From positions 160,001-224,000 of IMG/VR virus record IMGVR_UViG_3300045988_174371: a stretch of 64,000 nucleotides of DNA; one strand, 5' to 3'. Within the stretch, counting starts at the first letter, position 1, and every line of letters starts with the position of its first letter. The notes beneath the pieces were generated by a model. It saw only the letters and a list, made by a program, of their open reading frames with translations, had not been told where the DNA came from and ran no database searches. Both the position numbers and the translations under genes were made by a program. Origin of the DNA: a virus. Below, piece by piece: positions 3 through 60,613 of this stretch.

Positions 3-143
3 TGGTTGTGCACTGATGACCGTATGGTGATGAGAGTGAATGAGTGGGCGGAGGCGAACGGGTGTGCTGAGCGTATTCGCGCTGTTCGTTTGTGTCGCCC
101 TGATGGGTCGGTGTTTGAGGGTATCTCGTCGTTTGAGTTTTAG
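3..143 (+). CDS. 3' end of an unidentified + strand gene (partial, runs off left edge)
   Basis: Frame open from window edge to TAG 141-143 (...RVNEWAEANGCAERIRAVRLCRPDGSVFEGISSFEF*). T/G-ending codons like other + strand genes. A strong terminator follows. Too short for the ORF track. Confidence 0.3.
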   Translation, partial: WLCTDDRMVMRVNEWAEANGCAERIRAVRLCRPDGSVFEGISSFEF

Positions 144-158
144 TGTGTCGAGGTAAAC

Positions 159-209
159 AAAAAAGCGAAGCCCTGAACCATTGATGAAGGTTCAGGGCTT
201 CGCTTTTTT
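159..209. terminator. bidirectional rho-independent terminator
   Basis: Perfect 15-bp stem GCGAAGCCCTGAACC (165-179) / GGTTCAGGGCTTCGC (189-203), 9-nt loop, A-run 159-164 and T-run 204-209. Confidence 0.7.
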
Positions 210-305
210 GTTTTGGGTGCAATGCCTCAATGTCCTTAGGGTTTGGCGCTCGAATCCTTACCCATTGGGAGCCTGCCTAGTGGCGCTGGTGAGGTTTTAA
301 TTGTC
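159..305 (-). ncRNA. candidate small transcript (promoter-like motif to terminator, ~145 nt)
   Basis: The TCTGATATAC motif at 313-322 (minus) points leftward into the hairpin + U-run at 203-159. Only a 9-codon ORF lies inside. Confidence 0.2.
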
Positions 306-368: not shown

Positions 369-419
369 GTAAAGGTGGTATCCATACCAAATTTTGGTTA
401 GAGTGGATACCACCTTTAC
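369..419 (-). terminator. hairpin downstream of the PilT-like gene
   Basis: 16-bp inverted repeat GTAAAGGTGGTATCCA / TGGATACCACCTTTAC starting 11 nt after the stop at 430. No clear U-run. Confidence 0.45.
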
Positions 420-429
420 TTATGAGGTG

Positions 430-1989
430 CTAGATTTTCTCTAGCTCCTCCGGCGGGTAGTTGAACTGCTCACCGTTTGCCTCTGCTGTGCGAATGAGGG
501 TCATGAACCTGTGGGGGTCAGGGGCGTGCTCTAGGGCATCCTTGACGTAGCAGGGACCTGTTTCTGCGCGGCAAAGTTCCATTAGGATAGAGCACATGTC
601 TTTACCTACAGATTGTAGGTCTCGGCGGATGTACTCGAAGTTTCCAGTCTTAATTGCTTCGATGAGCTCCCTGTCGGATTGTAGAATTTCCAGCACTTCG
701 TGGGCGGGAATCATTCCGCCGTCCATGCGCTTCACCAAGGCTTGCGTCATGAAGACTCGTCCCACGGACGCGATGGATGAGAGTGAGTTCATTCGGAGTG
801 TACCGTCGTCGTTGGTAGCGAGACGTTCCACAATACCTGCGCAGTCCTGAGCGTGAACGGTGGTTAGGGTGAGGTGCCCGGTTTCAGCCGCACGAATGGA
901 TGCTTGAATTTCCTGCTCGGTACGAACCTCACCAATAAGGATGATGTTAGGGTTCTGGCGCATTGCGGACTTAATGCCATTAAGGAATGAGAAGGTGTCG
1001 GTATTTACCTCACGCTGAATGAAAAGGGTTCCGTTGCCGCGCGGGTTGTTACTATCGAAAAGGTATTCGATAGGCTGTTCGATGGTTACGATGGTCATAC
1101 CCATAGGTTCGCCGGTTACAGGGTGCGGCGTTGTAATGTGAAGCTGTATATGCAGGAGGCAAGCCGCCATTGTGGTTGATTTACCACTGCCGGTTACACC
1201 CCCGATGACGAGCATACCTGACTTCTGCCTAAGCGCCGCGATGAACGCTTCGGGGATGTTGTAGTTCTCAGGCTCCAAGATGTCTGTTGCCAGGAGACGG
1301 AAAACCAAGTTGATGCTGTCGCCAGGAGACACGTAGGTTACGCTGAGGCGGCAACGTCTGCCGGTGTACTTTCCTTTGGGGATGGTGTACGAGATGTCTA
1401 GTTCTCGGTCTGCCATGAACGTAGTCTTGGATGCGGTGATGGTTGCCGCCGTGAGGATTCTACCGAGGTCGCTACGGCTAGGTTCTGGTAGCTGTCGGTA
1501 AGGCATAAGTCCGTTATTGATTTTAAATCGGATAGCGGTCTCTGGCTGAATGTATACGTCACTAGCACCCATGTCGTATGCGTCGCTGAGGATACTACTA
1601 AGCGGGAAGCCGGGAGCTTCTTCATGGCTAACGGGTATGGACTTGCGAAGGTTGCTACGTTCCCCTTCACGCTCAACTGCCCCATATTTATCAATGGTTG
1701 CGGCGGCGATGTCTTTACTGGTTACGACGCTTACCTTCGCCTGAGATGAGGTTTCCTGCTTTACTTTCTGGAGGATTTCTTCAAGGAGCGCTTCGTGGTC
1801 GATGGGAGTGGCGACCACCTCCGCGCTTTCGGCAGAGCTAGGCTCTTCGGCAGGCGGAGGGGTGGGGTCTTCAGCGTATTGGGAGATAGTGGAGCTGAGG
1901 TTTTTAAGGCGTGCTTCCTCAGCGTTTGCGTCTCTTGAAGGGTTGAGATTATTCTGCTTGAGCGCAGATAGGGAGATGGGGGCAGGCAT
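430..1989 (-). CDS. PilT/GspE-family (T2SSE, VirB11-like) secretion ATPase
   Basis: 519 aa. Walker A GGVTGSGKSTT, then EQPIEY, IQREV, ILIGEVR, AAETGHL, TTVHA in the PilT order. Disordered P/E-rich N-terminus. Confidence 0.85.
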   Translation of the reverse strand: MPAPISLSALKQNNLNPSRDANAEEARLKNLSSTISQYAEDPTPPPAEEPSSAESAEVVATPIDHEALLEEILQKVKQETSSQAKVSVVTSKDIAAATIDKYGAVEREGERSNLRKSIPVSHEEAPGFPLSSILSDAYDMGASDVYIQPETAIRFKINNGLMPYRQLPEPSRSDLGRILTAATITASKTTFMADRELDISYTIPKGKYTGRRCRLSVTYVSPGDSINLVFRLLATDILEPENYNIPEAFIAALRQKSGMLVIGGVTGSGKSTTMAACLLHIQLHITTPHPVTGEPMGMTIVTIEQPIEYLFDSNNPRGNGTLFIQREVNTDTFSFLNGIKSAMRQNPNIILIGEVRTEQEIQASIRAAETGHLTLTTVHAQDCAGIVERLATNDDGTLRMNSLSSIASVGRVFMTQALVKRMDGGMIPAHEVLEILQSDRELIEAIKTGNFEYIRRDLQSVGKDMCSILMELCRAETGPCYVKDALEHAPDPHRFMTLIRTAEANGEQFNYPPEELEKI

Positions 1990-2116
1990 TGTCTGGCGTG
2001 TCCTTTCAGGCGGTGTGCAGGTGGTTAGTTTTCAGACCTACATAACGTATATCTGAACACTCTTTTTTGCTATGGCTTCCATGTAGGTTTCCGTCTAGTT
2101 TTGGGGGCGTTTCGGC

Positions 2117-2590
2117 ATGTTGAGCAGGTTTTTGGGGCTTTGGTGGGTGCGTTCTAGCGCCCTATTTTTTGTGCCTAAAGAGGGCGAGAAGTGGGGTACT
2201 TTCTGTGGGAGGGTAGGACTTATTGCAGGGCTAGGATTAAGTGTTGCTCTTGGGGGTTTGGGGAAGCTGTTGGGGATGTCTGGCTGGGTTGATGCTTGGG
2301 ACTTCTTGGGCGGCTGGAGTGTGGTATTTTTCGCTGTCGCTGTCGGGTTAATTGGCATTGGGGCGCTATTTAGCCCCGCTGAGGAAGCTATTGTTCCTTC
2401 TAGCGGGGCTAAATCTGCGGGCAATACTGCGCGGAAGCGTAAGAAGAGCCGCAAAGTTCCGCCTCAGCAAGCACAAGTTGTTCCTCCGCACAGCATTGCT
2501 GATGACGAACCTACTATTCCGCTAATGTATGGCGAGGTGGATGCAACTATCCCTCTTCCTGCGAACTATAGGTTTGACATGCTGAAATAG
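2117..2590 (+). CDS. hypothetical two-TM protein (uncertain; competes with antisense ORF 2095-2454)
   Basis: 157 aa. T/G-ending codons like the other + strand genes, non-repetitive basic C-terminus, GGGGG 8 nt upstream of the ATG, TTTTTGCTATGG motif ~45 nt upstream. Confidence 0.3.
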   Translation: MLSRFLGLWWVRSSALFFVPKEGEKWGTFCGRVGLIAGLGLSVALGGLGKLLGMSGWVDAWDFLGGWSVVFFAVAVGLIGIGALFSPAEEAIVPSSGAKSAGNTARKRKKSRKVPPQQAQVVPPHSIADDEPTIPLMYGEVDATIPLPANYRFDMLK

Positions 2591-4311
2591 TCTTCCAGCT
2601 CTTTAGTGGTTTCTGGGCTGAATAGGTTGTACCCTGTCCCCCGTACAATGTCGTATGCGAGGATGGACATGCCCTCAGAGTAGCCCTTATTATTCAGCAG
2701 GTAATTGAATCCACCGGGTAGGCTGACGTTCACAGCGTCGAGGGCGGCTTCATGCAGGTAGGGCACGCCTGTGAGCACGGGGATTCCGTTGATACTGTAG
2801 TCGGCTACCTGCCAGAATCCGAGCGCAGAGCCTTTCTTGACGATATGGTCTGGCTCTATCTTGTTCACGAAGATTCTTATACGGCGCGGGTTCATGCCAC
2901 CACCGCCACGTTTTACCGACCCTAACCCATAGGTGAACTGCCTTTTCATGGTGTCCAGCGGGATAGGGTATGGTTCTGCAACATAGAACAGCTTATGCGT
3001 GAGTGGGTATGCGCACAGCGTCATGTAAGGGTCTGCAAGTTGCACTGACGTGTCAATGATGACTACATCATAATGCTCTCTGAGGATGCTGATGATGGCG
3101 CGGTAGAAGTTTGGGTCTAGGTCGTTGAGGTCGCGAGGGTCTTCAGGAGCGAGTAGCGTATCATACCCTACTCGCTCATTCTGAACGATGTACTTCTCAA
3201 TGATGCGCCAGTCCTTCTCCTTATCTTCCCCTAGAGCCCTATGCTCACCGTTCATAGTCGCTTCGTACAGCTCATTGAAGATGCCCACTACTGTCTTGCT
3301 TTGGTCACTAGTATTGAAGCCTACCTGACCGTCTTGCAGGTCGAGGTCTACTACGATAACTTTCAATGCGTGTTTAGCGTATCCGTAAGCTTCCGCTTCT
3401 TTACCCCATGTGGTGAGGGCGTGGGCGATACCTAGCGATGTGGTAGTTTTACCTGTACCACCCTTCTTAGATGTTACGGTGATGACTCGCCCAAGATAGG
3501 GGGAACCGTCGATGTGCGTCTCATCAGGGTCTATTTCGTCCTGGATAGCCGCCAAGTCTGGATTGGTACGGGACTCTAGGATGCCTCGGAACGCTAGTAC
3601 GGGGTCTGCGTAAGAGGGCGGGTTTGCGAGAAACAGCTGAAGCATCTCGTAGAATTGCATTGCGATGTAGCTCTCAGGGACGCTCTCCCAGGGTGCTTCA
3701 GGGTTACCGGGAACCATGCGCGTCATTTCGATGTTGTACGTGGTGTAGGGTAGACCTTCGTTGTACAGCATGTTCTTCACGGCAGTGTTGATGGCGTAAA
3801 GCTGGCTGTGTTCGTTTGCGTCGCTAGGCTCTTCAAGCACGAATATTGGTGTTTCTACCATGATGTCTGCCATGATGCGTAGAACATTAGGCACCTGCTG
3901 AGGGTTGCGGAGACTGTTTCGGCGTAGTTCGATGTAGTAATCCGAATGCACAACAATAGCGTCCATAGTGTTAGAGATTGACGGCAATTCGGAGTGAATA
4001 TCGTTCCAGAGGTATTCAATGGTAGGGCATACACCAATGATTTCAGGGAACAGCAACTTATCCACGTCTTCAGGAGTTACCCCATAGAGGCTTGGTGAGT
4101 CTTTCAAGGGCGCTAGAGGTCCTTCGCCAGGGACAACCGGAGGCATTAGGAGCTTCAGCGTCTCACGGTAGAAAGCGGCATCTAGAACTTCGTCGGAGGC
4201 TTCAGAATCTAGCGGCTTGCGTGGGTTCTTGAGCTTGCTAAACTGTTCCGTACCAGAGATGTAGACAATGTTTGGCTTCTGGTAAAGCTTACGATTGGTG
4301 TTCGTCGCCAT
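2566..4311 (-). CDS. ParA/MinD-fold ATPase with long N-terminal extension (TadZ/CpaE-like)
   Basis: 581 aa. Deviant Walker A TSKKGGTGKTTTS, VVDLDLQ, VVIIDTS. The ~270-aa N-terminal domain and the adjacency to the PilT-like ATPase suggest a TadZ-type role (inference). Confidence 0.6.
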   Translation of the reverse strand: MATNTNRKLYQKPNIVYISGTEQFSKLKNPRKPLDSEASDEVLDAAFYRETLKLLMPPVVPGEGPLAPLKDSPSLYGVTPEDVDKLLFPEIIGVCPTIEYLWNDIHSELPSISNTMDAIVVHSDYYIELRRNSLRNPQQVPNVLRIMADIMVETPIFVLEEPSDANEHSQLYAINTAVKNMLYNEGLPYTTYNIEMTRMVPGNPEAPWESVPESYIAMQFYEMLQLFLANPPSYADPVLAFRGILESRTNPDLAAIQDEIDPDETHIDGSPYLGRVITVTSKKGGTGKTTTSLGIAHALTTWGKEAEAYGYAKHALKVIVVDLDLQDGQVGFNTSDQSKTVVGIFNELYEATMNGEHRALGEDKEKDWRIIEKYIVQNERVGYDTLLAPEDPRDLNDLDPNFYRAIISILREHYDVVIIDTSVQLADPYMTLCAYPLTHKLFYVAEPYPIPLDTMKRQFTYGLGSVKRGGGGMNPRRIRIFVNKIEPDHIVKKGSALGFWQVADYSINGIPVLTGVPYLHEAALDAVNVSLPGGFNYLLNNKGYSEGMSILAYDIVRGTGYNLFSPETTKELEDYFSMSNL

Positions 4312-4335
4312 GTGGTTCTCCTGAAATGGTTAGTT

Positions 4336-5610
4336 CTAGGTAATCTGTTGCTGGTGGGCTTCGTCGTAGGGGTTGGAGCTGAATGCCTTCACTAGGCTTG
4401 GTAGCCAGACTACGATTTGGACGTATCCACGCCGCTTTCTCATATCCTGCATGATGCAACTGCCTTTACCTGGCAAGTTTGCTATCGCATCGATGACTTG
4501 GCGGGCATCGTCGCTCAGCTCCTTCCCGTCAGTTTTGAGACCCATAGCTCTTGCGCCTACCTTTGCGTCGTCGCGCGAGTTTGCGAACGCGAAGTGGGTG
4601 CTAATGAGGGATACGTCGAGTCCGGTTGAGGCATTGAAGATATGGGCGTAGCTCTGAGTTCCAAGGACTAGCGCTAGGTTATTGGAACGCCCGAGAAGTG
4701 CCGTTGATTTGATGAGGTTAGCCCCCGACTGATTGGCAATAATTGACCACGCCTCATCGATTGCTACAACCTTCTTGATGTTCTTGGGCATCCTTGACAT
4801 GCTTTGCCTGACCAGTAGGGTAATCATGGTTAGGATTGCCTGCCCCACTGCCTTGCTTGGGTCTTTGAGGTCTACAATGGTTTTCGGAAGCTCATTGAGG
4901 CGAGAGAGGTCGATGACGGTGACACCGGGAGCGAACTTGAAGTATCGGGCAGGCTTACGGTCTGGCTCTGAAAGCAGGGTAACTCCTGCGCCTTCACTCA
5001 GAGTGTTGATGAGGGTTAGCGCGATGCCTTTCAGTTGCTCGTTGCCCGTGTCACTTGCAACCTTAATGAGCATGTTCAAGAAGACATCCATGCTTTTATC
5101 GTGCGGGCGTGACTTAATTACGTCTGTTATGGTTGCTTCTACCCAAGGGCGAACCGCATTGTCAGAGAGAGCATCTGGGACAATTGCGTGCATCATTGCG
5201 TGGACTGCGTTGCGTATGTCTGCTTTTGCATCCTCGGGTTTTTCTGCATTGTCGAAGATGACGAATGGGTCTAGGATGCCGACATTATTGGGGTCACTAG
5301 GGTCAATAGTCTTGATATTGCATGGCACGCCTAGGGTGTCTTCAATATTGATAATCTTGAGTAGGTCACCCTTCCAGTCGATGCCCACCACAGCGGCTCC
5401 TTGCAGGGCGGCAAGTGAAAGTATCCAAAGCATCCCGAAGGTTTTACCGCTACCTGGCTGTCCCGTGAATAGAGTTACGGGCGGCTTGTCGTTCAGGTTG
5501 GCGGCGTGTAGGTCGAAGAACACTGGGATGTCAGCTCTGAGGTTTGCACCAATTGCGTTAGGCTGTCCATACTTGTAGCTGTTGGTGCTCGCTTCTTCGT
5601 TGGTGCTCAT
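4336..5610 (-). CDS. VirB4/TraC-type ATPase, C-terminal (motor) domain only
   Basis: 424 aa. FTGQPGSGKTF (Walker A), VVAIDEAWS (Walker B), LVLGTQS. 4-nt overlap with the upstream VirB3-like gene. Confidence 0.65.
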   Translation of the reverse strand: MSTNEEASTNSYKYGQPNAIGANLRADIPVFFDLHAANLNDKPPVTLFTGQPGSGKTFGMLWILSLAALQGAAVVGIDWKGDLLKIINIEDTLGVPCNIKTIDPSDPNNVGILDPFVIFDNAEKPEDAKADIRNAVHAMMHAIVPDALSDNAVRPWVEATITDVIKSRPHDKSMDVFLNMLIKVASDTGNEQLKGIALTLINTLSEGAGVTLLSEPDRKPARYFKFAPGVTVIDLSRLNELPKTIVDLKDPSKAVGQAILTMITLLVRQSMSRMPKNIKKVVAIDEAWSIIANQSGANLIKSTALLGRSNNLALVLGTQSYAHIFNASTGLDVSLISTHFAFANSRDDAKVGARAMGLKTDGKELSDDARQVIDAIANLPGKGSCIMQDMRKRRGYVQIVVWLPSLVKAFSSNPYDEAHQQQIT

Positions 5611-6116
5611 TTTTTGGGCTCCCCCTTATTCTTCCGTGGTTGCGCCTTCTTCTTAGGCTTATATTTCTTCTCGGTCTGCTGTAGCTCGTAAAGAGCGTCG
5701 TATGAGCGGTTAGATACCTGAACCATGCTTGAGATGCGGTATACTCGCTTCGCGTTGGGGTCGTATTCAATGCCGTCTAGGTAGCCGCGCGCTTGCTTCT
5801 TCCATTGGCGCTTAGCAAGCAGGTATTTACCTGCTGTCATGCCGTCAAACTTTTCGGAAGTGTCACCTAGCTTCTTGCCTGCGTAGATACCAATTACTAG
5901 CGCGGGTGCCCATGCCCAGAGTAGGGTGATGATGATAGCTATCCCGAAGAGGATGAGTAGAAGAACTGCGAGTCCTACATATATGCCGAGTGCCAAACAT
6001 GCAATCCAAATGAACTGCGTCTGAGAGATGGGCTTACTGAACGTGTAGCCGCCAAATTCCCAGAACTGGTTGTCGCGCGCGAACACTTCGGTCGCGTTAT
6101 CGATTCGAATACTCAC
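5607..6116 (-). CDS. VirB3/PrgI/TcpE-like small membrane protein
   Basis: 169 aa. GTG start with GAGGGGG RBS, two adjacent TM helices, basic tail. Sits immediately upstream of the VirB4-type ATPase. Confidence 0.4.
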   Translation of the reverse strand: MSIRIDNATEVFARDNQFWEFGGYTFSKPISQTQFIWIACLALGIYVGLAVLLLILFGIAIIITLLWAWAPALVIGIYAGKKLGDTSEKFDGMTAGKYLLAKRQWKKQARGYLDGIEYDPNAKRVYRISSMVQVSNRSYDALYELQQTEKKYKPKKKAQPRKNKGEPKK

Positions 6117-6199
6117 AAGAGCGCCCCCTCAGGCATGTAGTACGGATGATTATAAAGGCATCACATATTACATAGCTGAGAGGGCGCTCTTTAAGAGGT

Positions 6200-6919
6200 C
6201 TACCACTTGAGCTCTACTGGCTCTGGTGTGGGGTCGTCTGGTGATGGGATGTGCACTTCTAGCGGGTAATCTGGCTCTTGTTCTGCTGTCGGGAGCAGTT
6301 TTGCGGCGGCGGTTTTAGCTTTCTTCGCCTCTGCTTTGCGCTCTTCACGGGCGATAAGCTTATAGTATTGGGTTACGCCGTCGTTGGGGTCGGTCTTACC
6401 GTCCTGGGGAACGATAGGGATTTTGTGGTCGGGGTCGATTTGCCATTGCTCGGCAATTTCTTCCAGCTCAGGTCGTTCTACTGCCTTGGTGATGTATCCT
6501 GCGGGGTCTACTTCGGTTATGGTGAGGTGGAAGCGGCGGTATCGGGTGAGGGCTCCGGGCGGGTTCTTCCACACCCCTCCGTAGGCGAAGGTGGTCTCTA
6601 CTAGGTGTTTCGCATCGTCGTCTTCCCACCAGCGCCCGGTGAAGCCGTCGAGTATTGGCTTTAGTACAGGGGCGTAGTTTGCGGGGTCTAGGTGCGTACC
6701 GCCACCCATGCCTAGTACCTCGAATCGGGCGGTATAGTGTTTCAGCGGCGTGAAGTCTGGGTGTTTCTCTAGGTACTGTGAGGCATGGTTAGAAGCGATA
6801 CCTCGTAATGCTTTGAATGCGGCGGCACGGACGAATGGGGAGATGCGCGCGTTCTCTGTAATAACCATGTGCGTTGGTATGTCGAGTACCATGTCGATTA
6901 CTTGTGGCTTGCGAGGCAT
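6200..6919 (-). CDS. RusA-like Holliday junction resolvase domain protein
   Basis: 239 aa. DPANYAPVLKPILDGF...WWEDDDAKHL resembles the RusA D-x-x-N...K...D...DD pattern. C-terminal half is unrelated and acidic/P-rich. Confidence 0.4.
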   Translation of the reverse strand: MPRKPQVIDMVLDIPTHMVITENARISPFVRAAAFKALRGIASNHASQYLEKHPDFTPLKHYTARFEVLGMGGGTHLDPANYAPVLKPILDGFTGRWWEDDDAKHLVETTFAYGGVWKNPPGALTRYRRFHLTITEVDPAGYITKAVERPELEEIAEQWQIDPDHKIPIVPQDGKTDPNDGVTQYYKLIAREERKAEAKKAKTAAAKLLPTAEQEPDYPLEVHIPSPDDPTPEPVELKW

Positions 6920-8994: not shown

Positions 8995-9909
8995 TTATAG
9001 TCGTTGCAGTAGTATGAGTGATGAGATGACGATGACAGCTACACTCCCCCATAGAACTCCACTGTTCAGGGCTTCGCTTTTAGCCTCAAAGGTCGCAAAG
9101 CGGTAGGTGTACCACAGCTTACCTTTTCGAGGGATGATTGGGGAGAAGAGGGGGACTCCAGCTTTGGTAAATGCGTCACCGATGATGTGGACTACCGCAC
9201 CAATACCTAGGCTATATCCTAGCCAAGTGTACTGCCCCGCCGGGATAGCGTTAAAGAATAGCAGTGTCACGGCAACTGATACGAGGAACATTAGCGTGGA
9301 GCCGATGTTCTTAACGCCCTTAACGGCTTTCAATGCTCCTACATTTAGACCTGACATGGCGATATGCATAGCCGCTAAACATAGTGTGGCGGCTATGAGT
9401 GCCCCCAGGTTGCTGATGCCTACGAACCCGAACGGCAATAGTACTGCCGTTGTGAGGGGGTTGCTGGTTAGGAAGTTCACGATGAGAGCGAGCGCACCAG
9501 CGCCAACTAGGGAATGCCAGAATCCGCGATGCACTACGTCATGTGCTTTAGCGCGGGACTTCGCATCTTGCTTAGTGTGAATGGTCTGGACAAGCCGTGA
9601 GCTTTCACGGAACGCAAAGGTGATGGGCTCACCGAAGATACCCATTGACGACTTTGCGGTTGATGAGGTGTTATCGAAGTCGGGGATAAGCGCGCCTGCC
9701 ACAAACGCAACAGCAGAGAGAACATATAGCCCCATACTTGGGCTGTTGCCCAGTACGAAGTTAATGGAGCTACTTCCGGCGAAGGCGAGAAACGCGAGGA
9801 AAGCCGCAAGACCTGTGGATGCGTGAGCTTGCCCCATGAGCGCGTCATCTTGTTCACCTATGGTATGGGTTATGCCGTGAGTCCAGCAGACGTGTTGCGG
9901 TGGTGCCAA
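8995..9909 (-). CDS. YdjM/DUF457-like membrane-bound metal-dependent hydrolase
   Basis: 304 aa, TTG start. HGITHT, IPDFDN, HRGFWHS, HIIGDAFTKAGVPLFSP in the family order. Multiple TM helices. Confidence 0.55.
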   Translation of the reverse strand: MAPPQHVCWTHGITHTIGEQDDALMGQAHASTGLAAFLAFLAFAGSSSINFVLGNSPSMGLYVLSAVAFVAGALIPDFDNTSSTAKSSMGIFGEPITFAFRESSRLVQTIHTKQDAKSRAKAHDVVHRGFWHSLVGAGALALIVNFLTSNPLTTAVLLPFGFVGISNLGALIAATLCLAAMHIAMSGLNVGALKAVKGVKNIGSTLMFLVSVAVTLLFFNAIPAGQYTWLGYSLGIGAVVHIIGDAFTKAGVPLFSPIIPRKGKLWYTYRFATFEAKSEALNSGVLWGSVAVIVISSLILLQRL

Positions 9910-15554: not shown

Positions 15555-16217
15555 TTAGCGGATATACATTTCTCCCATAGCAGGGAGGACGGCGTATAGG
15601 GCAGGCACCAAGAGGAATGGAGCTAGTGCGATAGGAATGAGCGGCACCTTGATAGGCTTCTTACTGGAGGTTAGAACCGCTGTGGTAATGGCTGTGACTA
15701 GGACGAAAACCATAGAGCCAATGAAGGCTGTTGATGCTTCCGGGTGTGCTATCTGTATGGGTGTGACACATGATACGGCGACGCATAGGGCTGTGGCATC
15801 TCCTGCCCACCAGCGGCGCGTTACGGCGGTTAGGACCAGTATTACGAGAGCCGCCGCCACAACCTGTGTATCGTTATTCATGGCGGCGGAGAGGACAAAT
15901 AGAGCCCACCCATACATAAGGTGTGGCTCGCTGGCTTTCCTGTACTGCAAATCCGTGTAGGACGCTTGTGTGTATACGTAGGTGAGCATCGTTGCTCCTG
16001 TCAATGCGACCACCTGACCTGAATACCAGGGGTGAGTGAGGAGCAGGACGCTGATAAGTGAGGCTATAACGACGGCGATAATGTGGCTTTGCACCCAGAC
16101 TTTGCGGGCGTGTCGCTTCGGTTTAACCCACTCCGGCGGCTGGGTTATTGCTATTGCACTCAAACAAAAAAGACACCAAGGGAAGATGATGGGTAGATAA
16201 GGGGTTATCTCATGCAT
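15555..16217 (-). CDS. A24-type prepilin peptidase-like membrane protein
   Basis: 220 aa, 6-7 TM helices. SYTDLQYRKASEP (first Asp context), WWAGDATAL (G-x-GD-like second Asp), KVPLIPIALAPFLL C-terminal motif. Confidence 0.4.
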   Translation of the reverse strand: MHEITPYLPIIFPWCLFCLSAIAITQPPEWVKPKRHARKVWVQSHIIAVVIASLISVLLLTHPWYSGQVVALTGATMLTYVYTQASYTDLQYRKASEPHLMYGWALFVLSAAMNNDTQVVAAALVILVLTAVTRRWWAGDATALCVAVSCVTPIQIAHPEASTAFIGSMVFVLVTAITTAVLTSSKKPIKVPLIPIALAPFLLVPALYAVLPAMGEMYIR

Positions 16218-24065: not shown

Positions 24066-27000
24066 TTATTTGCTTTGCTCATCGTCGTTACCGCGCTTGG
24101 CGTTGGGGTCTAGCTTCCACCAAGGACTATAGCCGTCGCTGGTGCGAACAATGTCATTGAGCGTTTCTTCCGGGGTGCGGTTAATCTTGTACCCTAGCTC
24201 ATTCTCAATGTACTTGTGAATAGCAAGCCCCCAATGTCGGTGCATCTTTTCGAAGTTGTCACTGTCGCGAGCAACATTGAACGCATCAACGTTGAAGTAT
24301 GGCTTAAATGCTTCGGGTAGCTCATAGACGATGACGCTCTGCTGTCGCTCGTCTAGTGCGCTTCGGTGATGCCTTGCCATACTGTCTGCCGCCGCTGTGG
24401 TTAGCGCCTTGTAAGCGGTTAATGCGTCTGCTTCGCTCTTGACGTTCTCACGCTGAAGCTCAGGCTGTGCTAGAGCCATTGTGAGGTATGTGTCCTTGAT
24501 AGGCTTCATGCGCGGCTTAGCTTTCTTCTCGTCAGCCTTATTCTTGATAGGCTTAAGCAGTTCGCTATCCGGTACGAGCCCGTCTGACTTGCACCTCTGG
24601 CAGTACATGCGGTTAGTGAGCGAGTCTACAAACATGTTTATTTCACCGTGTTTGTAGGTGCGCTTACAGTTGGAGCATACTAGCAGGTCTGGTTCATCCG
24701 CAGTAGGCGTGTGTCCTTGCGGTTTGAGCAGCCTGCTGGGAGCGAACTCGTTCGCCTTATTGGATGCGCGGGTGGTGAAGCGACCGAACTTGGACTCGTT
24801 GGCAATGTCTCGCTTCTTGTCGGCGGCGGCGCTACTAGCCGCCTTGAGGAAGGAGCCACCGGCACGTTTCGCAGTCACACCGCTAACAACGGATGCGGTA
24901 CCGATACCTGTTACACGTTTGGTAGCCAACCCAATCCTGTTGAGTACACCAACAGGCTTGGACACAAGACCGCCCGCGTAGGTCTCTGCAAGAGCCAGAA
25001 CGCGGTTCTTCATCTTCCACAAAGCGAAAGACAGGAGAGCCAACACGACAACCCCCCACCAGAAACCGGAGCTTGCCATAATCTTGTAGCCCCACAGCAC
25101 GAATACGACCGATAGGGTCAGCAGTAGACCTAGTGCTATTCGTGCGAAATACAGGTAGAGTGCCATCTTCCCGTATTTCTTGGCGAAGCTAATACCTTGG
25201 TGAGTTGAGGTCATCAAGGCGATTGCGGCGAAGGGAACGATGAGGATGTACAGCTGTAGTACTACGCTAAGGATTGCGGTCAGTAGCGCGAGGATACCGG
25301 GGACAGTGAGCGCAATAAGAGCGACGATGAGGGAAGATAGACCCACTCCAATTCGTGCACCACTTGAAGCGCCTACCCAGGTGTTCCAAGACTCAAGAGG
25401 CTTGGAGTTCATGTCCTGCGCGCCGCGAGTAATCTCTACTGCTGAGCTGGAGTTACCAGTGCTCACAGCGGCGGCATGAGGGGAAAGTCCGTCTTTCTCC
25501 TTGGTTACGTCAATATTGCGTTCTTTAAGCCACGCTTGAGGGTCAGTAACGTTGTCCTGGTTACCCCAGTCGGTGCCAGGGCGGACTTCGAAGTGAAGGT
25601 GGCAACCGTATGCGTGTCCGGTGTCGCCGCTGGAGGCAATTTCTTGTCCAGCCTTAACCTCGTCGCCAACCTTGACGCGCAGAGAGCCATCTTGCATGTG
25701 CCAGTACATCGTGCTAACGCCGTCATGCTGGATAATGATACCGTTTGCCCCGTCAGATGCTTTCTGTGCAAACACAACTTTACCGTTACCAGCGGCATAG
25801 ATAGGTGCCCCGCACTGTGCACCAAAGTCTATACCCTTGTGTACGTCACCGAGCTCTGGGCGGTTTCCATAGGGTGAAGTCATTGCGGCTTCGGCAGGTC
25901 GCGCCCATTCGCCATTGGAAACATTGCTTGGCAGGTCGCGAGCTTGCGGAACCTTAATCTCAACGTCTTTCTCGTTGTAGTTGCTGAGGGCATCTACAAC
26001 GCGCCACCAGTCAGTAGAGACACCTTGGGCTTCACGTGACTTACCGGCGGTCTCGTTGCCGGTTTGCAAGTGATTGGTGGTTTGGGTAGAGAGCTGATAA
26101 ATAGCCCAGTTGTTCAGGGTGGTTTCCGCGCCCATTGGGACAGATGCGTCCCCTACCCATTTACCGTTACTGTTGCCTAGCTTCTTGCCATCTTTCGCCC
26201 ATTCGGGTATGTCTTTACCCTCAGCCCAGAGATTATTCGGGTTCGTGCCGAACTGTCCCTGTACCCAGGGGTCAAACACGAACAGTTTCGTGAAGGTACA
26301 GGATAGCTGAGAGGCTACAATTTCACTGTAGTTCTCACTGACAACTTGAGCTACCTCGTCACCGATTACCTTTACAGGGTCTTTACCATCTTCCTTGGTA
26401 GCCTTGTAGGTGCTCTTCTTATTACCAACTTCAGTTGAACACCATTCACCCATGCTGGTAAGCTCTTCCGTGGTCGCCTTGATGGTGATGCTTTGAATCC
26501 ACGCGGCGGCACGGTTTGGTAGAGGTAGAAGCTTGGGTGATAGCGCAATAAACGACACCGCAAACAAGCCGGTAAAGAGCGCAATGGAGAAGCGCTTCCA
26601 CTTCTCCCTAGCCTGGTCGCCGGTCACGATACCCTTCACTAGGAACAGTAGACCACCGAGCACGATAAGTGAAGCGAGGGGGATAAGGAAATTATCCTGA
26701 AGGAAGCGGAGGATGCCGCCTAGTGCGTCGGGGTTGTTGCCTACAAGGATGTTAGTTAGACCCATCAGCTTAGCAATGTCCTTGAAGCTGAGGACAAGTA
26801 GGGCGAGGAAGAATCCGAGTACCCAGGTGGTTGCGCCAAGGAGAATGTTGCCAATGTAGGTACCTGCGGCAGATGCGTATCGGACACCCTGACCGTTGGC
26901 GTAAATCTGAGTTCGCGGGTCGAGGCTGGAGCTTGCCCTATCCCAGGTTGCGGTGGGGTCGAGGCGAGTCTCATAATAATGGTTCGCCTTCGGGTCTTTA

Positions 27001-27542
27001 GCTTCAGGCTTATCGGCACATGCGTCAATTCGCAAGTAGTTCCACTCGCCGGTATATGCGGTGAACTGGTAGCCGCCAAGCCCGAACCTGTCAAAGAAAT
27101 TCAGCTTATTGCCTTTGTTGAACCCTGCGCCGTTGGTCGCGTCAGTGCCGCCAATGACAAGCTGTTGGTTATTCTTCTCAATATCGACACCTACAACCTT
27201 AAGCAACATGTTAGCGCCACTTTCAGGGTTGGAGCGCCCACTTGTAGCGGCTGATTTACTGTACGCCATGAATTGCAAGTCGTTGCTCTGGCTGTACTGA
27301 TAAAGGCGTGCGGGGAGGCTGTCTTTTCCGAAAGCATCGCACATCACCCATTTATTCACGTCGAGTGCGTGGGCGGGCTGAGCTTTCCCACTATTCACGC
27401 TGAACGCAGGGTACAAGCTGAATGCTAGGAGTGTTGCAGTTAGGAGAGCGATAAGGGCGCGCCACGCCCCCCTAACGCCTTTCCTGTTGGTGTTAGGGGG
27501 GTTCACTGCTGGTGTAGCTGTGAGTCTGGTTTTTGCGCGCAT
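24066..27542 (-). CDS. polytopic VirB6/TrbL-like membrane protein fused to an M23 peptidase and a C-terminal zinc ribbon
   Basis: 1158 aa. HKGIDFGAQCGAPIYAAGNGKV...GDTGHAYGCHLHFEV (M23), two TM clusters, CSNCK...CQRCK. Shares CTFTKLFVFDPWVQGQFG and NNWAIYQL modules with 27563-31585. Confidence 0.8.
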   Translation of the reverse strand: MRAKTRLTATPAVNPPNTNRKGVRGAWRALIALLTATLLAFSLYPAFSVNSGKAQPAHALDVNKWVMCDAFGKDSLPARLYQYSQSNDLQFMAYSKSAATSGRSNPESGANMLLKVVGVDIEKNNQQLVIGGTDATNGAGFNKGNKLNFFDRFGLGGYQFTAYTGEWNYLRIDACADKPEAKDPKANHYYETRLDPTATWDRASSSLDPRTQIYANGQGVRYASAAGTYIGNILLGATTWVLGFFLALLVLSFKDIAKLMGLTNILVGNNPDALGGILRFLQDNFLIPLASLIVLGGLLFLVKGIVTGDQAREKWKRFSIALFTGLFAVSFIALSPKLLPLPNRAAAWIQSITIKATTEELTSMGEWCSTEVGNKKSTYKATKEDGKDPVKVIGDEVAQVVSENYSEIVASQLSCTFTKLFVFDPWVQGQFGTNPNNLWAEGKDIPEWAKDGKKLGNSNGKWVGDASVPMGAETTLNNWAIYQLSTQTTNHLQTGNETAGKSREAQGVSTDWWRVVDALSNYNEKDVEIKVPQARDLPSNVSNGEWARPAEAAMTSPYGNRPELGDVHKGIDFGAQCGAPIYAAGNGKVVFAQKASDGANGIIIQHDGVSTMYWHMQDGSLRVKVGDEVKAGQEIASSGDTGHAYGCHLHFEVRPGTDWGNQDNVTDPQAWLKERNIDVTKEKDGLSPHAAAVSTGNSSSAVEITRGAQDMNSKPLESWNTWVGASSGARIGVGLSSLIVALIALTVPGILALLTAILSVVLQLYILIVPFAAIALMTSTHQGISFAKKYGKMALYLYFARIALGLLLTLSVVFVLWGYKIMASSGFWWGVVVLALLSFALWKMKNRVLALAETYAGGLVSKPVGVLNRIGLATKRVTGIGTASVVSGVTAKRAGGSFLKAASSAAADKKRDIANESKFGRFTTRASNKANEFAPSRLLKPQGHTPTADEPDLLVCSNCKRTYKHGEINMFVDSLTNRMYCQRCKSDGLVPDSELLKPIKNKADEKKAKPRMKPIKDTYLTMALAQPELQRENVKSEADALTAYKALTTAAADSMARHHRSALDERQQSVIVYELPEAFKPYFNVDAFNVARDSDNFEKMHRHWGLAIHKYIENELGYKINRTPEETLNDIVRTSDGYSPWWKLDPNAKRGNDDEQSK

Positions 27543-27562: not shown

Positions 27563-30500
27563 TTACCTATGCATCTTATAGCTGATAAGCTTCTCCACCA
27601 TTTCGAGAAGAAGCTTGTGCTCTTCGGGCGCGTGGCTGGTGTTGTGGTTGGTCAGCCATTTCCTGATGAGTTCAAGCTCTTCAAGTGAGCGTTCGTTGAG
27701 CTGTTCCTCAGTGAGGGTAAGGGCGTTCTTCACCTCGTCCGGGATGTCGTTGAGGGTTCCGCCGTTCATTGCTTCCATTGTGCGTTCCGCTTGCATGTTG
27801 CGGAAGAATCGCTCTTGGAACCTGTTGGCGGCTTGAGCCCCCACCGACTTTGCGGCGTACTTGAGGGTGTTTTCCTTGCCTGTTACCTTATGGATTGCCC
27901 GCTCTTCTGGTGTGAATCGAACGTCATTCTGCACGTCGAAGCGTTCGGACTTTGGGATAGCTTTCTGGTTGGATTGCTTCTCCACGGTTTCCTGTACCAT
28001 GCTGTGTGCGGCTTCGGCTGAACGTTTACGCTCTTCAAGGGCGGCTTGGACGTTCGCGGCATGAGCTTCACCTTCAGGTGCTTCCCATTTGCCGCCGAGC
28101 TGTTCGACATAGTTTTTCTGTGCTTCGTAGCGTTCCTGCACGGTCGCTTCGGCATGTGCACGTTCCTTTGCTTTAGCTTCCTGTAGGGCGGTGACAGTCT
28201 TCTTAGCGCTACGGATGTCCTTGGGGCTTCGGAGCCTATCGATGCTTGTGTCGGTTGCCTTAACGCCGTGTTCTGCGGCGTTAATTTCGTTGAGGTTGCG
28301 TGCGATGTCCTTTGCTTCGTTGAACCCTTCCATGTCCTGTACGCTCTTACGGGCTGTTTCCAGACCTGTTGCATGGGCTGTAAGTACAGTTCGTACAGCA
28401 CCCTTGCGGTTGTGCGGGTTGAACTGAGGTAGCTCAGTGGCGGACTTTGCCGCTGTGATGAAGCCGCCACGCAAACCGTTCTCAGCATAGCCGGTTGCAA
28501 AGCCACGCTTTGCCTTGCTAGGTGCCATCTCCACGAAACGGACGACGCTCTTGCCAACCTTGGTCTTAGACAGGATAGCCTTACTGTCGGTCATGTTCAT
28601 CGTTCCGGCGATGCCGTGACCTGCCATGATGCGCTTCATAATCTTACGAGCACCCAAGAGTATAAGGAGCGACATGAGCGCCTGAGCGATAAACACGTAG
28701 ATGTACTCGCTCACCGAACTTGTGAGGTTGATGAGTAGCACAGACATGAGGCATAGCAGGAAGGTCAGAATTGCAGACTGAGCGTACAGACCAAGGATGT
28801 TGGTCACGTACTTGAGGGTTGCAGTCTTAGTCTTCTTACCGAGAAGCGCCATTAGCAGGATGAATGGCAATATGACGAGCATCAGTAGCAGGATTGCTTT
28901 GATGATTGCCTTGTATATTGCGAAGTACCCTACCGTGATGCCGGTGATGCCAGCGGCTATAGGGGCGAGTGCCCCTACTGATGCGCGAGACATGGGTTCG
29001 CGCCCTGCCCAGTATTTGAGGTAGCGGGAGTCTGTGCCAGCACCGTTGTCAATTCCTGCTTGAACATCTACTATTCGGTACATGTCACGGCTGGTAATTC
29101 CAGCAGGGCGGTTGGGGTTATCTGCGGTGGTGGTGCCAGTACTCATGAGGTCTAGCTGATAGAGCGCCCAGTTGTTCACCGTGATACCTGCGCCCATCTG
29201 TACGGGTGCGCGGCTCACCTGTGCACTGTTGGTGTTGGTGAGGGTGTGCGCTGTTACAGGGCGCTTAGCGTCTACAGCGTACAAGTTGTTGTATCCGGTT
29301 CCCCATTGTGCGTAGCTCCACGGGGTGAGGACGTTCATGCGCCATACCTCGCACATTAGGGTTCGGGTTGCCGGGTCTGCGTCGGTTCGCTTAGCGGCGT
29401 ATTTGATGACTCCTGTGTTGCCGGTGGCGCTACAGATTTCGTCCCCTAGCGTGTTGGTTACTAGCGCGTCAGCGATAGCGCTGTCGAGTACGTTCACGCT
29501 CCTGTCCACGAATTTAATGGTTTCGTGGGGCTTGTTGAGCATGAGCGTGGCAGTGGTGGAGATAGCTAGGATACCTACGATGAATACGGCGATTGAGCGG
29601 ATGCCGCGCTTGCCGGTCGTGATAGTTTCGCGCGTCAGCAGTAGAACGCCTACGAATGCTACAGTGATGGCAAACGGGTAGAAAGCATTATTAGTGAATA
29701 GGGTGATGAGGTCGGCAATGAGGTTGTCTATACCGAAGGTCTGTAGAATCGGTGACATGCCGATGTTGAGGGCGGCGTTGGCGAAGCGAGTGATTCCAGA
29801 TGCGGACAGGATGCCTGCATTGGCGAAATCGGTAAATACGCCGTCTGAGCTGAACAGCATAGATGCCATGTTGGATTCGTATAGCTCACGGCGGGTATCG
29901 TTCATGATGCCGTCGCCCGTGCCGTAGATGCCGCCCTTGATGGGTGCGCGGGTGTGGGCGCAGTCGGAGTTGTATTTGCCGTCTGCGTTGAACAGCTTCA
30001 TGGGCTTGCCGTTGCCGTCCAGCTTATCGGTGCCGTCTGCGTTAAGGCAGTAGTACTGGTTGGTGGGGCTGTTGAAGTTTGCGGCAATGTTCTTCCTGAG
30101 GAAGTCTTGGAAGAACCCTGGCTGGTTTAGCTGTTCTGCGAGTTTCTTCCCTGCTTCACCTTCCTTATCCTTGGTGTACTTCTGTACGGCGGTGGTGTAG
30201 GCGTTAGGGACGCAGGAGTAGAAAGCGCTGATGGTTTCATCGCGCTTAGCTTCGTCTTCGTCTACGTTACAGGTGAGGTTGTACTTTTGGGCGGATTCGA
30301 ACCATCCCTTGTTGTGTTCCTTCCAGTCTTTGATGGTCTCAGCTTGCTTGTCGGTTGCGTCCCATTGGTAGTCGGGGTGCTCCATGTTGGCGGTCTTTGC
30401 CGCTTCAGAACATGCGTTTTCGTCAGCAAGCTTAGAGATGGTGTTCTTTGAGCCGTCGGGGTTGGTGACGATACAGGTAGTGCCGCCAGCTACAGGTTGT

Positions 30501-59498: not shown

Positions 59499-60281
59499 CT
59501 AGCTTCCCGGAATGGTCAAGACCTGACCCGGAAAAATAAGATTCACATCGTAAATCACATCCACATTAGCGTCCGCAATAGCCTGATAGCCGCCTGCAAC
59601 ACCCAAACGGCTTGCAATGAGCGATAGCGTATCACCAGCAACAACCTGGTACGTGGAAGAAGCCGCAACCGGAGCCTTCACAGGGGCAACGGCAGGAGCC
59701 GGAGCCTCAGTAGCAACCGGGGCGACCGGAGCAGACTCAACAGCCGCAGTAGAAGCCGCATCTGCCGAAACAGCAGGAGCCTCAACAACAGGGGTAACTG
59801 GAGTAGCTACAGCAGGAGCCGCCGGAACGGTGGCAGGAGCCGGAGCTACCGGAGTCTGCACAGTGCCCTGAGGAGCAACTACCGTAGAAGTAGTAGCCGC
59901 CGGAGCAGACTGAACTGCACCAGAGTTAGAGTAGGTGGGGGTTGCCGCGCCAGACAAACCGTACTTGGCAGTACAAGCGGGCCATGCGCCCCAACCCTGC
60001 AAAGCTAGAAGACGCTCACCAGCTTCAATCTGAGCCTCCTTGGAAGCGGTGTGCGGAGAACCGCTCATACCTACACCATTCCAAGACTGCTGAGTGAACT
60101 GCAAACCGCCATAGAAACCGTTACCAGTATTGATAGACCAGTTACCACCCGACTCACACTGAGCGAGCTTTTCCCACGTAGCAAGGTCAGCGGCATTAGC
60201 CGAAGGAACCGCAAGTGCCCCAACGGAAAGACCACCAAGTGCAAGAGCTACAGCGGTACGACGAATGGAAGTGTTCTTCAT
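59499..60281 (-). CDS. rpf: resuscitation-promoting factor (Rpf transglycosylase-like domain + LysM)
   Basis: 260 aa. Signal peptide, CESGGNWSINTGNGFYGGLQFTQQSW, A/P/T linker, C-terminal LysM YQVVAGDTLSLIASRLG. Confidence 0.9.
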   Translation of the reverse strand: MKNTSIRRTAVALALGGLSVGALAVPSANAADLATWEKLAQCESGGNWSINTGNGFYGGLQFTQQSWNGVGMSGSPHTASKEAQIEAGERLLALQGWGAWPACTAKYGLSGAATPTYSNSGAVQSAPAATTSTVVAPQGTVQTPVAPAPATVPAAPAVATPVTPVVEAPAVSADAASTAAVESAPVAPVATEAPAPAVAPVKAPVAASSTYQVVAGDTLSLIASRLGVAGGYQAIADANVDVIYDVNLIFPGQVLTIPGS

Positions 60282-60613
60282 AATACTCCTTAGGGGTGCC
60301 CTCGCTCGCCCCGTCCCCAGGGCTCAAACGCGCCTCCGCCCGCCCCTCTTTGTTAAAGTGGGCTAAGTTTCTAGTTCAGCTTCGTGGGCGGCTCATCACC
60401 CCATCAAAATCACCTTTGAACAGTACCAGCCGTAAAGCGCGTGCTCTCAGCTAACACTAAGGTGACCATCCGGCGTGAGGGCGTGAAGAAGAACCGGGCA
60501 CCTTCACCATCTAACCAAACGGTATGTGGCGAAGATACGAGTAACTGCTAGTCAAAGCGGTTACCAGAAAACATGATACCTGGGTTACCTGCTAGAGGCA
60601 ACCCAGCTCTACA

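Follow-up and report, generated by a model that had tools for sequence, protein, structure and literature searches.

Background

Monoderm secretion systems of type IV (T4SSs) are regarded as working with two ATPases, namely VirB4 and the coupling protein. In the Dot/Icm system of Legionella and on the IncI plasmid R64, a PilT-related hexameric ATPase (DotB and TraJ, respectively) is encoded with the T4SS instead of VirB11, and TraJ has been placed nearer to PilT than to VirB11 (PMC4027160). The present analysis concerns a 64-kb stretch of DNA, referred to as the window (positions 160,001 to 224,000 of IMG/VR record IMGVR_UViG_3300045988_174371, numbered here from 1), in which a PilT-like ATPase, a MinD-like ATPase and a VirB4 motor domain are encoded close together near the left edge. 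The element carrying this module is plasmid-like and ~300 kb in size, and IMG/VR lists the source record as a virus.

A preliminary description of the window had taken these genes for parts of a type IV pilus-like module grafted onto a Gram-positive T4SS, and had noted that a VirB11/PilT-class ATPase is unusual in Gram-positive systems. The latter point agrees with the literature, in which VirB11 is rare outside MPF_T systems (PMC4027160). Based on sequence comparison, the block is read here as a conserved sub-module, made up of ATPase and DNA-processing genes, that belongs to a monoderm (Tcp/MPF_FATA-like) conjugative T4SS in which the PilT-like protein would take a DotB/TraJ-like role, a reading that we give about an even chance. 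The role is proposed because TraJ and DotB set the precedent of a PilT-related ATPase serving a T4SS (PMC4027160). The three-motor set most likely helps to drive DNA transfer rather than the building of a pilus.

The ATPase module and its conservation in relatives

The four open reading frames (ORFs) described at 430-6116 were all present on the minus strand and their family assignments held (Table 1). In the direction of transcription they encode a VirB3-like protein, the VirB4 motor half, the MinD-like ATPase and the PilT-like ATPase. The stop codon of the VirB3-like gene overlaps the start of the VirB4 motor half, and the Walker A, Walker B and Asp/His boxes were intact in all three ATPases. 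The three ATPases said to lie in a row were thus all confirmed, although the row is not strictly contiguous as a plus-strand gene (2117-2590) intervenes. This gene encodes a two-transmembrane (TM) protein, runs divergently from the PilT-like gene and shares 25 nt with the 3' end of the MinD-like gene. Equivalent opposite-strand genes were called in the related loci L001, L002-4 and L038. Because it separates the PilT-like gene from the MinD-like gene, the former was considered to be its own transcription unit, with hairpins on its 3' side. The ORF at 2095-2454 (-) lies almost wholly inside 2117-2590 on the other strand, had no family match and was taken as spurious.

Relatives of the module were read in the loci L001-L004, L038-L040, L049, L050, L053 and P0175, while L031 denotes DNA reaching beyond the left edge of the window. 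The order of a TcpE/PrgI-like gene, a short AAA_10 gene, an AAA_31 gene, small opposite-strand genes and a T2SSE gene was kept in L001-L004 and L038, where the PilT-like proteins were 40-72% identical. In the L039 and P0175 lineages the same four genes were still neighbours, with the T2SSE gene convergent with the other three; identity was 33-37% for the PilT-like proteins and 37% for the ATPase domain of the MinD-like protein. The preliminary description had looked to co-occurrence in related elements, and in such elements, 220-380 kb in size, the four genes kept together across three deep lineages. Since the set is syntenic in relatives at 33-72% identity, its linkage is far beyond chance, and this linkage, including the rearranged order in L039 and P0175, supports a working unit of a T4SS.

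Table 1 Features of the module and of related genes in the window (coordinates are window positions unless prefixed L031; strands are those of the window)
Feature	Position	Strand	Evidence or remark
Last 47 codons of the 567-aa winged helix-turn-helix (wHTH) + PD-(D/E)xK-like gene	3..143	+	Translation ends GISSFEF and stop, as in L031
wHTH + PD-(D/E)xK-like protein, 567 aa	L031:11847-13550 (last 47 codons = window 3-143)	+	Starts outside window; convergent with PilT-like gene
Perfect 25-nt inverted repeat, 9-nt loop, A/T-rich flanks	155..213		Between the convergent wHTH-nuclease-like and PilT-like genes
Perfect 16-nt inverted repeat	369..419		Just 3' of PilT-like stop codon
Divergent PilT-class hexameric ATPase, 519 aa	430..1989	-	Pfam T2SSE 3.9e-32
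Two-TM membrane protein, 157 aa, conserved	2117..2590	+	47% identity to L001 counterpart, E 7e-48; TM scan
MinD/CpaE-class deviant-Walker-A ATPase, 581 aa	2566..4311	-	Pfam/NCBIfam scans, AlphaFold2, Foldseek
Motor half of split TcpF/VirB4, 424 aa	4336..5610	-	Pfam AAA_10 6.3e-32
TcpE/PrgI-type VirB3-like membrane protein, 169 aa	5607..6116	-	PrgI 1.6e-4 (sub-threshold)
Inverted repeat of 26 nt with 85% complementarity, arms 23 nt apart	6117..6191		Directly 5' of VirB3-like start
Polytopic membrane protein, 220 aa, previously called A24-like	15555..16217	-	Real and conserved; not counted in module
N-half of split VirB4, 502 aa, no P-loop	46136..47644	-	NCBIfam TcpF/TraC/CD1110, N-terminal or middle parts only
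Type IV coupling protein (VirD4/TraG-like), 863 aa	49362..51953	-	TraG-D_C 2.3e-9, TrwB_AAD_bind 3.8e-8, NCBIfam; hydrophobic N-terminal segments
lysM-Actino RNA (RF03090), full-length	60282-60505	-	156.5 bits, E 1.5e-38

The split VirB4 and its T4SS context

The AAA_10 protein scored 111.4 bits in Pfam against a cut-off of 27.5, carries the motifs GQPGSGKT (Walker A) and VVAIDEAW (Walker B), and matched the C-terminal half only of the TcpF/TraC/VirB4 models. It aligned to residues 462-855 of a Bacillus cereus TcpF and to residues 459-824 of a Streptomycetaceae VirB4, two loci in which a TcpE-like or small hypothetical gene is followed by a single VirB4 gene of ~860 aa. The gene for the N-half stands 40 kb away from that for the motor half. 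It follows the coupling-protein gene ~1.7 kb downstream, and a 408-aa gene lies between these two. By tblastn, 86-89% of the N-half's length aligned to the N-terminal ~420 aa of TcpF-like genes, and phmmer mapped its residues 277-459 to TcpF 253-430. In Nonomuraea the N-half match (11241332-11242549) and the C-half match (11240204-11241280) abut inside one gene. Because one protein aligns to the first and the other to the second half of undivided TcpF/VirB4 genes, in colinear fashion, the VirB4 of this element is split at a domain boundary into two genes 40 kb apart, both of them intact and conserved. An intact, identical N-half protein was called in many independent assemblies, and across all relatives the motor half measures 409-431 aa. 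A text search of the literature for a described split or truncated VirB4 found none among the papers listed.

The 169-aa protein encoded directly upstream of the motor half is small and hydrophobic and scored 22.6 bits with PrgI, below the Pfam cut-off of 27. It was 27% identical (E 1.6e-4) to a TcpE-matching protein of L039, and a TcpE match occupied the same position in the P0175 lineage. The earlier VirB3-like and VirB4-motor identities were therefore retained, the first on its position, its hydrophobic stretch and TcpE-matching homologues in two lineages, and the second on an AAA_10 match above cut-off.

The wider window provides a T4SS context that supports this reading of the module, including the coupling protein, wall hydrolases (Phage_lysozyme2 and M23) and large polytopic proteins that are VirB6-like candidates. 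The last are three proteins of 1158, 1340 and 1287 aa (24066-27542, 27563-31585 and 41254-45117, all on the minus strand) with 5-8 predicted TM segments each, one of them with an M23 peptidase domain. These are candidate VirB6-like channel or wall-remodelling parts.

The PilT-like ATPase

The best NCBIfam model for the PilT-like protein was PilT/PilU (TIGR01420, 3.5e-56, 190.9 bits; family cut-off 319.1), followed by the ComGA, TraJ and DotB models at ~1e-31 and then by GspE and PilB (80 bits for PilB). The TraJ and DotB scores were 108.8 and 107.3 bits against cut-offs of 368 and 463. Scores were lower for VirB11 (9e-12, 44.6 bits, cut-off 249.95), TrbB (36.2 bits) and TadA (7e-7, 28.7 bits). 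The best matches in the Protein Data Bank (PDB) were PilT (1e-34) and DotB (7e-30). Identity was ~24% to R64 TraJ and to a Brucella DotB-like protein and 18% to VirB11 of pTi. The N2 and ATPase domains were both present; the motifs read GVTGSGKS for Walker A, ILIGE for Walker B and TGHLTLTTVH for the His box, and an Asp box was seen as well.

In a crude neighbour-joining tree of T2SSE ATPases that included sequences from the related loci, the PilT-like proteins of the giant elements formed a clade of their own, outside canonical PilT (74% support), PilB/GspE/PilQ (87%) and VirB11/TraJ. The preliminary description had allowed for a grouping with the VirB11 proteins of ordinary T4SSs; none was seen, given the separate branch and a VirB11 score of 44.6 bits compared to 190.9 for PilT.

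The N-terminal region of the protein (residues 1-125) begins with a short conserved peptide (M..PA..SL..L.) that is followed by an acidic Pro/Thr-rich linker. From this pattern, the peptide and linker of the PilT-like proteins look like a tethered docking motif.

Search for type IV pilus components

If the PilT-like protein, a TadZ/CpaE-like ATPase and an A24-like peptidase were parts of a type IV (Tad/thin-pilus-like) filament that stabilises mating, as had been proposed, the remaining pilus genes would be sought nearby. The search covered ~58 window ORFs, 9.5 kb beyond the left edge and ~20-kb neighbourhoods of about ten relatives, the latter surveyed by a precomputed Pfam library only; the replicon measures ~307 kb. 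The PilT-like gene was the single T2SSE-family gene among the window ORFs scanned. No PilB/GspE- or TadA/CpaF-type assembly ATPase was detected in the window, the flank or the relatives' neighbourhoods, and no T2SSF platform protein (PF00482: PilC/TadB/TadC) in the window ORFs, the flank or the Pfam annotation of the relatives, an annotation that was likewise free of pilin and A24 families. When the viral collection was scanned with a pattern derived from three aligned T2SSF sequences, there was no output and the scan was uninformative. A regular-expression scan for class III signal prepilins in all ORFs of 40-350 aa on both strands returned only antisense or internal false positives, although Flp-type pilins without E+5 could escape it. 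The profile searches suggested earlier thus yielded, over the window and flank, one T2SSE protein and neither T2SSF, pilin nor A24 matches, and the remark that no platform protein or pilin is recognisable in the window stands with the family scans and the signal-peptide scan.

The family of the supposed A24 peptidase (15555-16217) occurs in these elements only and has invariant residues D89, G139-D140 and a C-terminal P-L-x-P, and the earlier impression arose because these resemble the motifs of GxGD peptidases. Among 12 members of the family there was no Pfam Peptidase_A24 match at E<=10, a PDB profile search gave no match and hhalign against a genuine A24 peptidase returned a probability of 0.14%. 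A Foldseek fold search also found no match, but the model was weak (predicted local distance difference test, pLDDT, 66) and the search uninformative. The assignment as an A24 peptidase was therefore not confirmed.

A filament module is accordingly judged highly improbable. It would fit the PilT class of the ATPase, the N-terminal alpha/beta domain of the MinD-like protein (for which TadZ was among the structural matches and a CpaE-like model was weakly matched by 13 of 41 members) and the GxGD-like residues of the 220-aa membrane protein. However, PilT-type ATPases serve in filament retraction, and such a motor on its own cannot build a filament, while the genuine plasmid type IV pilus loci of R64 and of a Pseudarthrobacter plasmid hold all parts side by side. 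With no pilin, platform or assembly ATPase in the DNA read, a TadA-type score of 28.7 bits, no support from the A24 tests and a constant neighbour that is DNA-processing-like, the pilus interpretation of the preliminary description is not supported.

The MinD-like ATPase

A ParA/MinD P-loop domain extends from residue 275 to about 500 of the MinD-like protein, with the motif SKKGGTGKTT at 281-290. The N-terminal 270 aa had no family match in Pfam or NCBIfam and no TadZ_N match. An AlphaFold2 model (pLDDT 89) showed two domains, the N-terminal one alpha/beta, and Foldseek placed ParA, FlhG and MinD first and TadZ (3fkq) 7th (E 1.5e-8, TM-score 0.54 on the target, root-mean-square deviation 20 A). 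The label TadZ/CpaE-like was therefore fair as a description of the architecture, whereas membership of that family was not demonstrated, with no TadZ_N match and no TadA nearby. The long-N-domain family was confined to these elements, with 7 clusters in 5.8 billion proteins, and tblastn against 72,556 reference plasmids found no counterpart. An exhaustive HMMER search recovered 346 relatives of mostly 450-490 aa with the ATPase domain C-terminal. Among 41 members scanned the best model was MinD in 40, with ParA matched by 28 and actinobacterial CpaE-like/Ssd by 13, all far below cut-offs.

It is conceivable that the grouping of genes is incidental, with the MinD-like protein a partition ATPase and the PilT-like protein a cargo gene that, for example, manipulates host pili, and neither working with the T4SS. 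The MinD-like protein does match ParA families (NCBIfam ParA_partition at 1.4e-6 and 28 bits against a cut-off of 180; a PHROG 'ParA-like partition protein' at 4e-12), and the PilT-like gene is a separate transcription unit with an opposite-strand gene between. However, the linkage persists down to 33-37% identity and through rearrangement, the N-domain of 270 aa is unique, and neither a ParB-family match in the 64-kb window nor a repeat array or obvious centromere-like array near the MinD-like gene was found. We regard this explanation as quite improbable. With MinD as its best model, no ParB in the window and linkage to the VirB4 motor half in three deep lineages, the MinD-like protein was not considered an ordinary partition ATPase.

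The nuclease-like partner gene

The gene convergent with the PilT-like gene ends just inside the window. Homologues of its C-terminal ~300 aa adjoined the PilT-like gene in all nine giant-element loci read (the present element, L001, L002, L038, L039, L040, L049, L050 and L053) at 27-36% identity (E 1e-21 to 1e-58), and this pairing also supports the T4SS reading. The nine include loci without nearby AAA_10 or AAA_31 genes and the Inocle-like locus L049 with 30% GC, which carries an LPXTG adhesin and SecA2/SecY2. The partner proteins were 540-1006 aa across the giant-element loci, and their alignment revealed a winged-helix region and invariant SPE, GNE, PD(L/I)V..PR and A.E.E..K motifs.

The family of the partner is less clear. 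The Pfam domain Replic_Relax (PF13814), the MOB_C relaxase family (PMC5357655), was above cut-off in one of eight members (1e-5, 26.1 vs 25.3 bits) and reached E 0.026 in another, and most had no match. A PDB profile search gave weak matches to wHTH proteins of the MarR type. Alignments of the partner family by hhalign to two annotated replication-relaxation proteins were not significant, and tblastn of the partner in plasmids returned either nothing or one weak match at E 0.04. The partner is thus a candidate Replic_Relax/MOB_C-type relaxase or initiator, to be taken as a lead and not as a result. A PF13814 domain is also present in InoC, the universal single-copy marker of Inocles (PMC12340149), and the partner/PilT-like pair may be a marker linking different families of giant Gram-positive elements.

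The partner is also where a different interpretation begins, in which the wHTH-nuclease is a replication initiator and the three ATPases form a replication, segregation or DNA-uptake device of a very large replicon, akin to pumps of the HerA/FtsK type or to the Ced importer of archaea. In every lineage the neighbours are genes for replication or repair (RecG-like helicase, DnaB, RadA-like, topoisomerase, ribonucleotide reductase, ligase and RusA-like), and in L040, L049, L050 and L053 there are no T4SS genes near the PilT-like/partner pair. The name Replic_Relax itself stands for replication and relaxation, the domain marks Inocles through InoC (PMC12340149), and the AAA_10 protein weakly matched CedB (1.4e-6). 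Conversely, that protein is specifically the C-half of TcpF/VirB4 and lies behind a TcpE/VirB3-like gene, while its N-half lies near the coupling protein. No switch of strand composition occurs at the partner gene, the nearest being ~7 kb away, and T2SSE-family ATPases are not known to act on DNA directly. On balance, a DNA-transaction device is unlikely, although it is the main alternative to the T4SS reading.

Proposed role of the module

Under the preferred reading of a conjugative T4SS sub-module, the PilT-like hexamer would be a cytoplasmic traffic ATPase in the role that DotB/TraJ or VirB11 have in diderm systems, docking on the VirB4 motor at the base of the channel. It may also deliver the relaxase-DNA substrate that the neighbouring MOB_C-like protein would make, and in this way couple that relaxase-like protein to the VirB4 motor. 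The task of the MinD-like ATPase would be to position or recruit the relaxosome or the assembly, a part taken elsewhere by VirC1, TadZ and FlhG, and no filament would be made by the genes of the module.

Several observations weigh against this interpretation. The functions of all partners are read from homology and synteny, and 30-45 kb separate the sub-module from the remaining T4SS genes. Genes of replication and repair (RecG-like helicase, DnaB, RadA-like, RusA-like and YdjM) surround it in all lineages, and three more distant giant-element lineages have the PilT-like/partner pair with no AAA_10 or AAA_31 gene within 8-10 kb. The PilT-like family is no nearer to DotB/TraJ than to PilT and its deep placement is unsettled in the crude tree. 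The Replic_Relax assignment is weak, with seven of eight members below cut-off and both hhalign tests negative.

A bolder version can be put forward, although we consider it somewhat unlikely. The five linked genes (TcpE-like, VirB4 motor, MinD-like, PilT-class and MOB_C-like) would form an undescribed cytoplasmic 'energy and relaxosome centre' of monoderm conjugation, in which a PilT-class hexamer obligatorily paired with a relaxase is stacked on a free VirB4 motor and enables the transfer of ~300 kb. The PilT-like/nuclease pair would then be an ancestral hallmark uniting giant elements of Actinomycetota and Bacillota (Inocle-like).

The element and its host

The window is contained in the 306,861-bp contig IMGVR_UViG_3300045988_174689, catalogued as viral. 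Identical or near-identical window proteins were found on many contigs of 307-380 kb, including a 360,715-bp contig from a human oral metagenome. The window has a GC content of 53%, the minus strand is the coding strand for nearly every gene, and its replication and repair genes include DnaB, DnaG, SSB, an SbcC-like protein, a RecG-like helicase and NAD ligase. At the nucleotide level the window had zero matches among reference plasmids and phages. Searches with the PilT-like protein in PLSDB, INPHARED and GTDB representative genomes returned only ordinary PilT at ~30% identity and no cultured host.

A lysM-Actino RNA is located 5' of a gene for an Rpf-transglycosylase with LysM (59499-60281), and the best VirB4 matches by tblastn were in Nonomuraea and Streptomycetaceae; on both grounds an actinobacterial host is proposed. 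A phage identity was rejected, as 30 window proteins compared to PHROGs gave no structural or packaging family match except for one sub-threshold, terminase-like P-loop match, which was the VirB4 motor half. Since conjugation and replication genes are present and no phage structural gene is recognisable, a megaplasmid was preferred over a phage. The element looks like a conjugative megaplasmid-like element of human oral Actinomycetota, roughly 310-380 kb in size, and the IMG/VR virus record is probably a misfiled megaplasmid like that reported for Hodors. Within the literature searched, this giant actinobacterial element has apparently not been described before.

Neighbouring genes, noncoding features and strand composition

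Just upstream of the module, a 239-aa protein (6200-6919, minus strand) matched a RusA-like Holliday-junction resolvase (phrog_34, 2e-7). A YdjM-family polytopic membrane protein is encoded at 8995-9909 (-), and its position a few genes upstream of the TcpE/VirB4 motor pair was kept in three deep lineages; it may be part of the module. The perfect inverted repeat at 155-213 looks like a bidirectional terminator, and the repeat at 6117-6191 may mark a transcript boundary or an operator.

Strand asymmetry was very strong, the plus strand being G+T-rich through the window with a reversal of sign near 58 kb. GC skew reached +0.41 and AT skew -0.42 at 52-58 kb, and beyond the left edge (L031:12000-21557) the skews reached 0.69 and 0.86 with an abrupt flip at ~20.45 kb of L031. 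The skew tracks a ~66-kb domain rather than single genes. An 848-aa ORF on the G+T-rich strand (56737-59283, plus strand) had no family match, spans the skew flip and was called as a gene in the independent assemblies L051 and L052. At L031:18000-20400, ~6-8.4 kb beyond window position 1, 2.4 kb of DNA contain only 10-20 T per 500 nt. Translated in one frame, this DNA gives a low-complexity polypeptide rich in Pro, Thr, Asn and Glu that lacks a start codon, and the opposite strand has an open ORF of 771 aa; gene callers choose that strand in the relative L001 (723 aa).

Comparison with known systems

Among the closest known systems are the Tcp/MPF_FATA systems of Bacillota and Actinomycetota (TcpD/TcpE/TcpF of pCW3-like loci and PrgI/PrgJ of pCF10). 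They too have a VirB3-like gene placed directly upstream of the VirB4 motor, along with a coupling protein, hydrolases for the wall and large polytopic proteins, and the best VirB4 matches were in Nonomuraea, Streptomycetaceae and Bacillus plasmids. The present system differs in a VirB4 split 40 kb apart, in two extra ATPases and in genes that are spread over >50 kb and interleaved with replication genes. The monoderm T4SS itself is known; what is new is such a system with a split VirB4 and two additional lineage-specific ATPases.

The PilT-like ATPase recalls DotB and TraJ, yet it scores far below their cut-offs (107-109 bits vs 463 and 368), has ~24% identity and does not group with them in the tree. 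It also differs in a monoderm host, in an N-terminal extension of 125 aa and in its partners, which are a split VirB4, a MinD-like protein and a MOB_C-like protein, with no DotC, DotD or DotO. If the proposed role is true, DotB/TraJ would no longer stand alone, and a motor of the pilus-retraction type would have been taken into the transfer of DNA or protein a second time, independently.

TadZ/CpaE proteins are alike in being MinD-fold deviant-Walker-A ATPases that have a further alpha/beta domain at the N terminus and are encoded alongside a secretion ATPase. The MinD-like protein here differs in that its best structural matches are plain ParA, FlhG and MinD, it has no TadZ_N match and it is not accompanied by TadA, TadB/C or Flp. 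Its N-domain alone is ~270 aa, compared to 354 residues for the whole 3fkq chain. VirC1 of pTiC58 is a plain ParA of 231 aa without an N-domain. Plasmid-borne T2SSE-family ATPases also occur in the thin pilus locus (PilQ, PilR, PilS, PilU, PilV) of the conjugative plasmid R64 and, for a Gram-positive host, in the type IV pilus locus on the Pseudarthrobacter megaplasmid pPA-B-2242, which was typed as non-mobilizable. Those loci hold assembly ATPase, T2SSF protein, pilins and A24 peptidase together, whereas none of these was found here.

The partner resembles the MOB_C relaxases (PF13814) in a wHTH followed by a PD..ExE..K motif, with one member passing the cut-off, and Replic_Relax genes adjoin the coupling ATPase in ordinary plasmids. 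In contrast to those relaxases, the partner proteins are much longer (540-1006 aa), most have no Pfam match and the profile comparison was not significant.

At the level of the whole element, Inocles of oral Streptococcus (PMC12340149) and Hodors of gut Bacillota (PMC12934698) are alike in a size of 200-400 kb, an origin in human-associated metagenomes and the presence of VirB4 and VirD4, and Hodors were also found in viral catalogues (PMC12934698). GC content is 53% here, compared to 32% or 24% in Inocles and 47% or 45% in Hodors. No Rep_3, ParB, ParM or HD-relaxase match was found in the 64 kb holding VirD4 and VirB4, and the lysM-Actino riboswitch-like RNA points to Actinomycetota. The difference in GC content and the lack of Rep_3, ParB and ParM matches in the window argue against a Hodor, and the element is apparently of the same general kind as Inocles and Hodors but distinct from both. 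The PilT-like ATPase is mentioned zero times in the Inocle and Hodor papers (PMC12340149, PMC12934698), yet the Inocle-like L049 has the same PilT-like and Replic_Relax-like pair.

A deep and widespread lineage of giant elements thus adds PilT-class and MinD-class ATPases to its T4SS and splits VirB4 at a domain boundary. If these proteins work together, the detached motor and its partners would be separately expressible and would offer a natural dissection of the VirB4 N-domain from the motor. The PilT-like/Replic_Relax-like pairing provides a simple marker for giant Gram-positive plasmid-like elements filed as viruses and hints at a common origin with Inocles.

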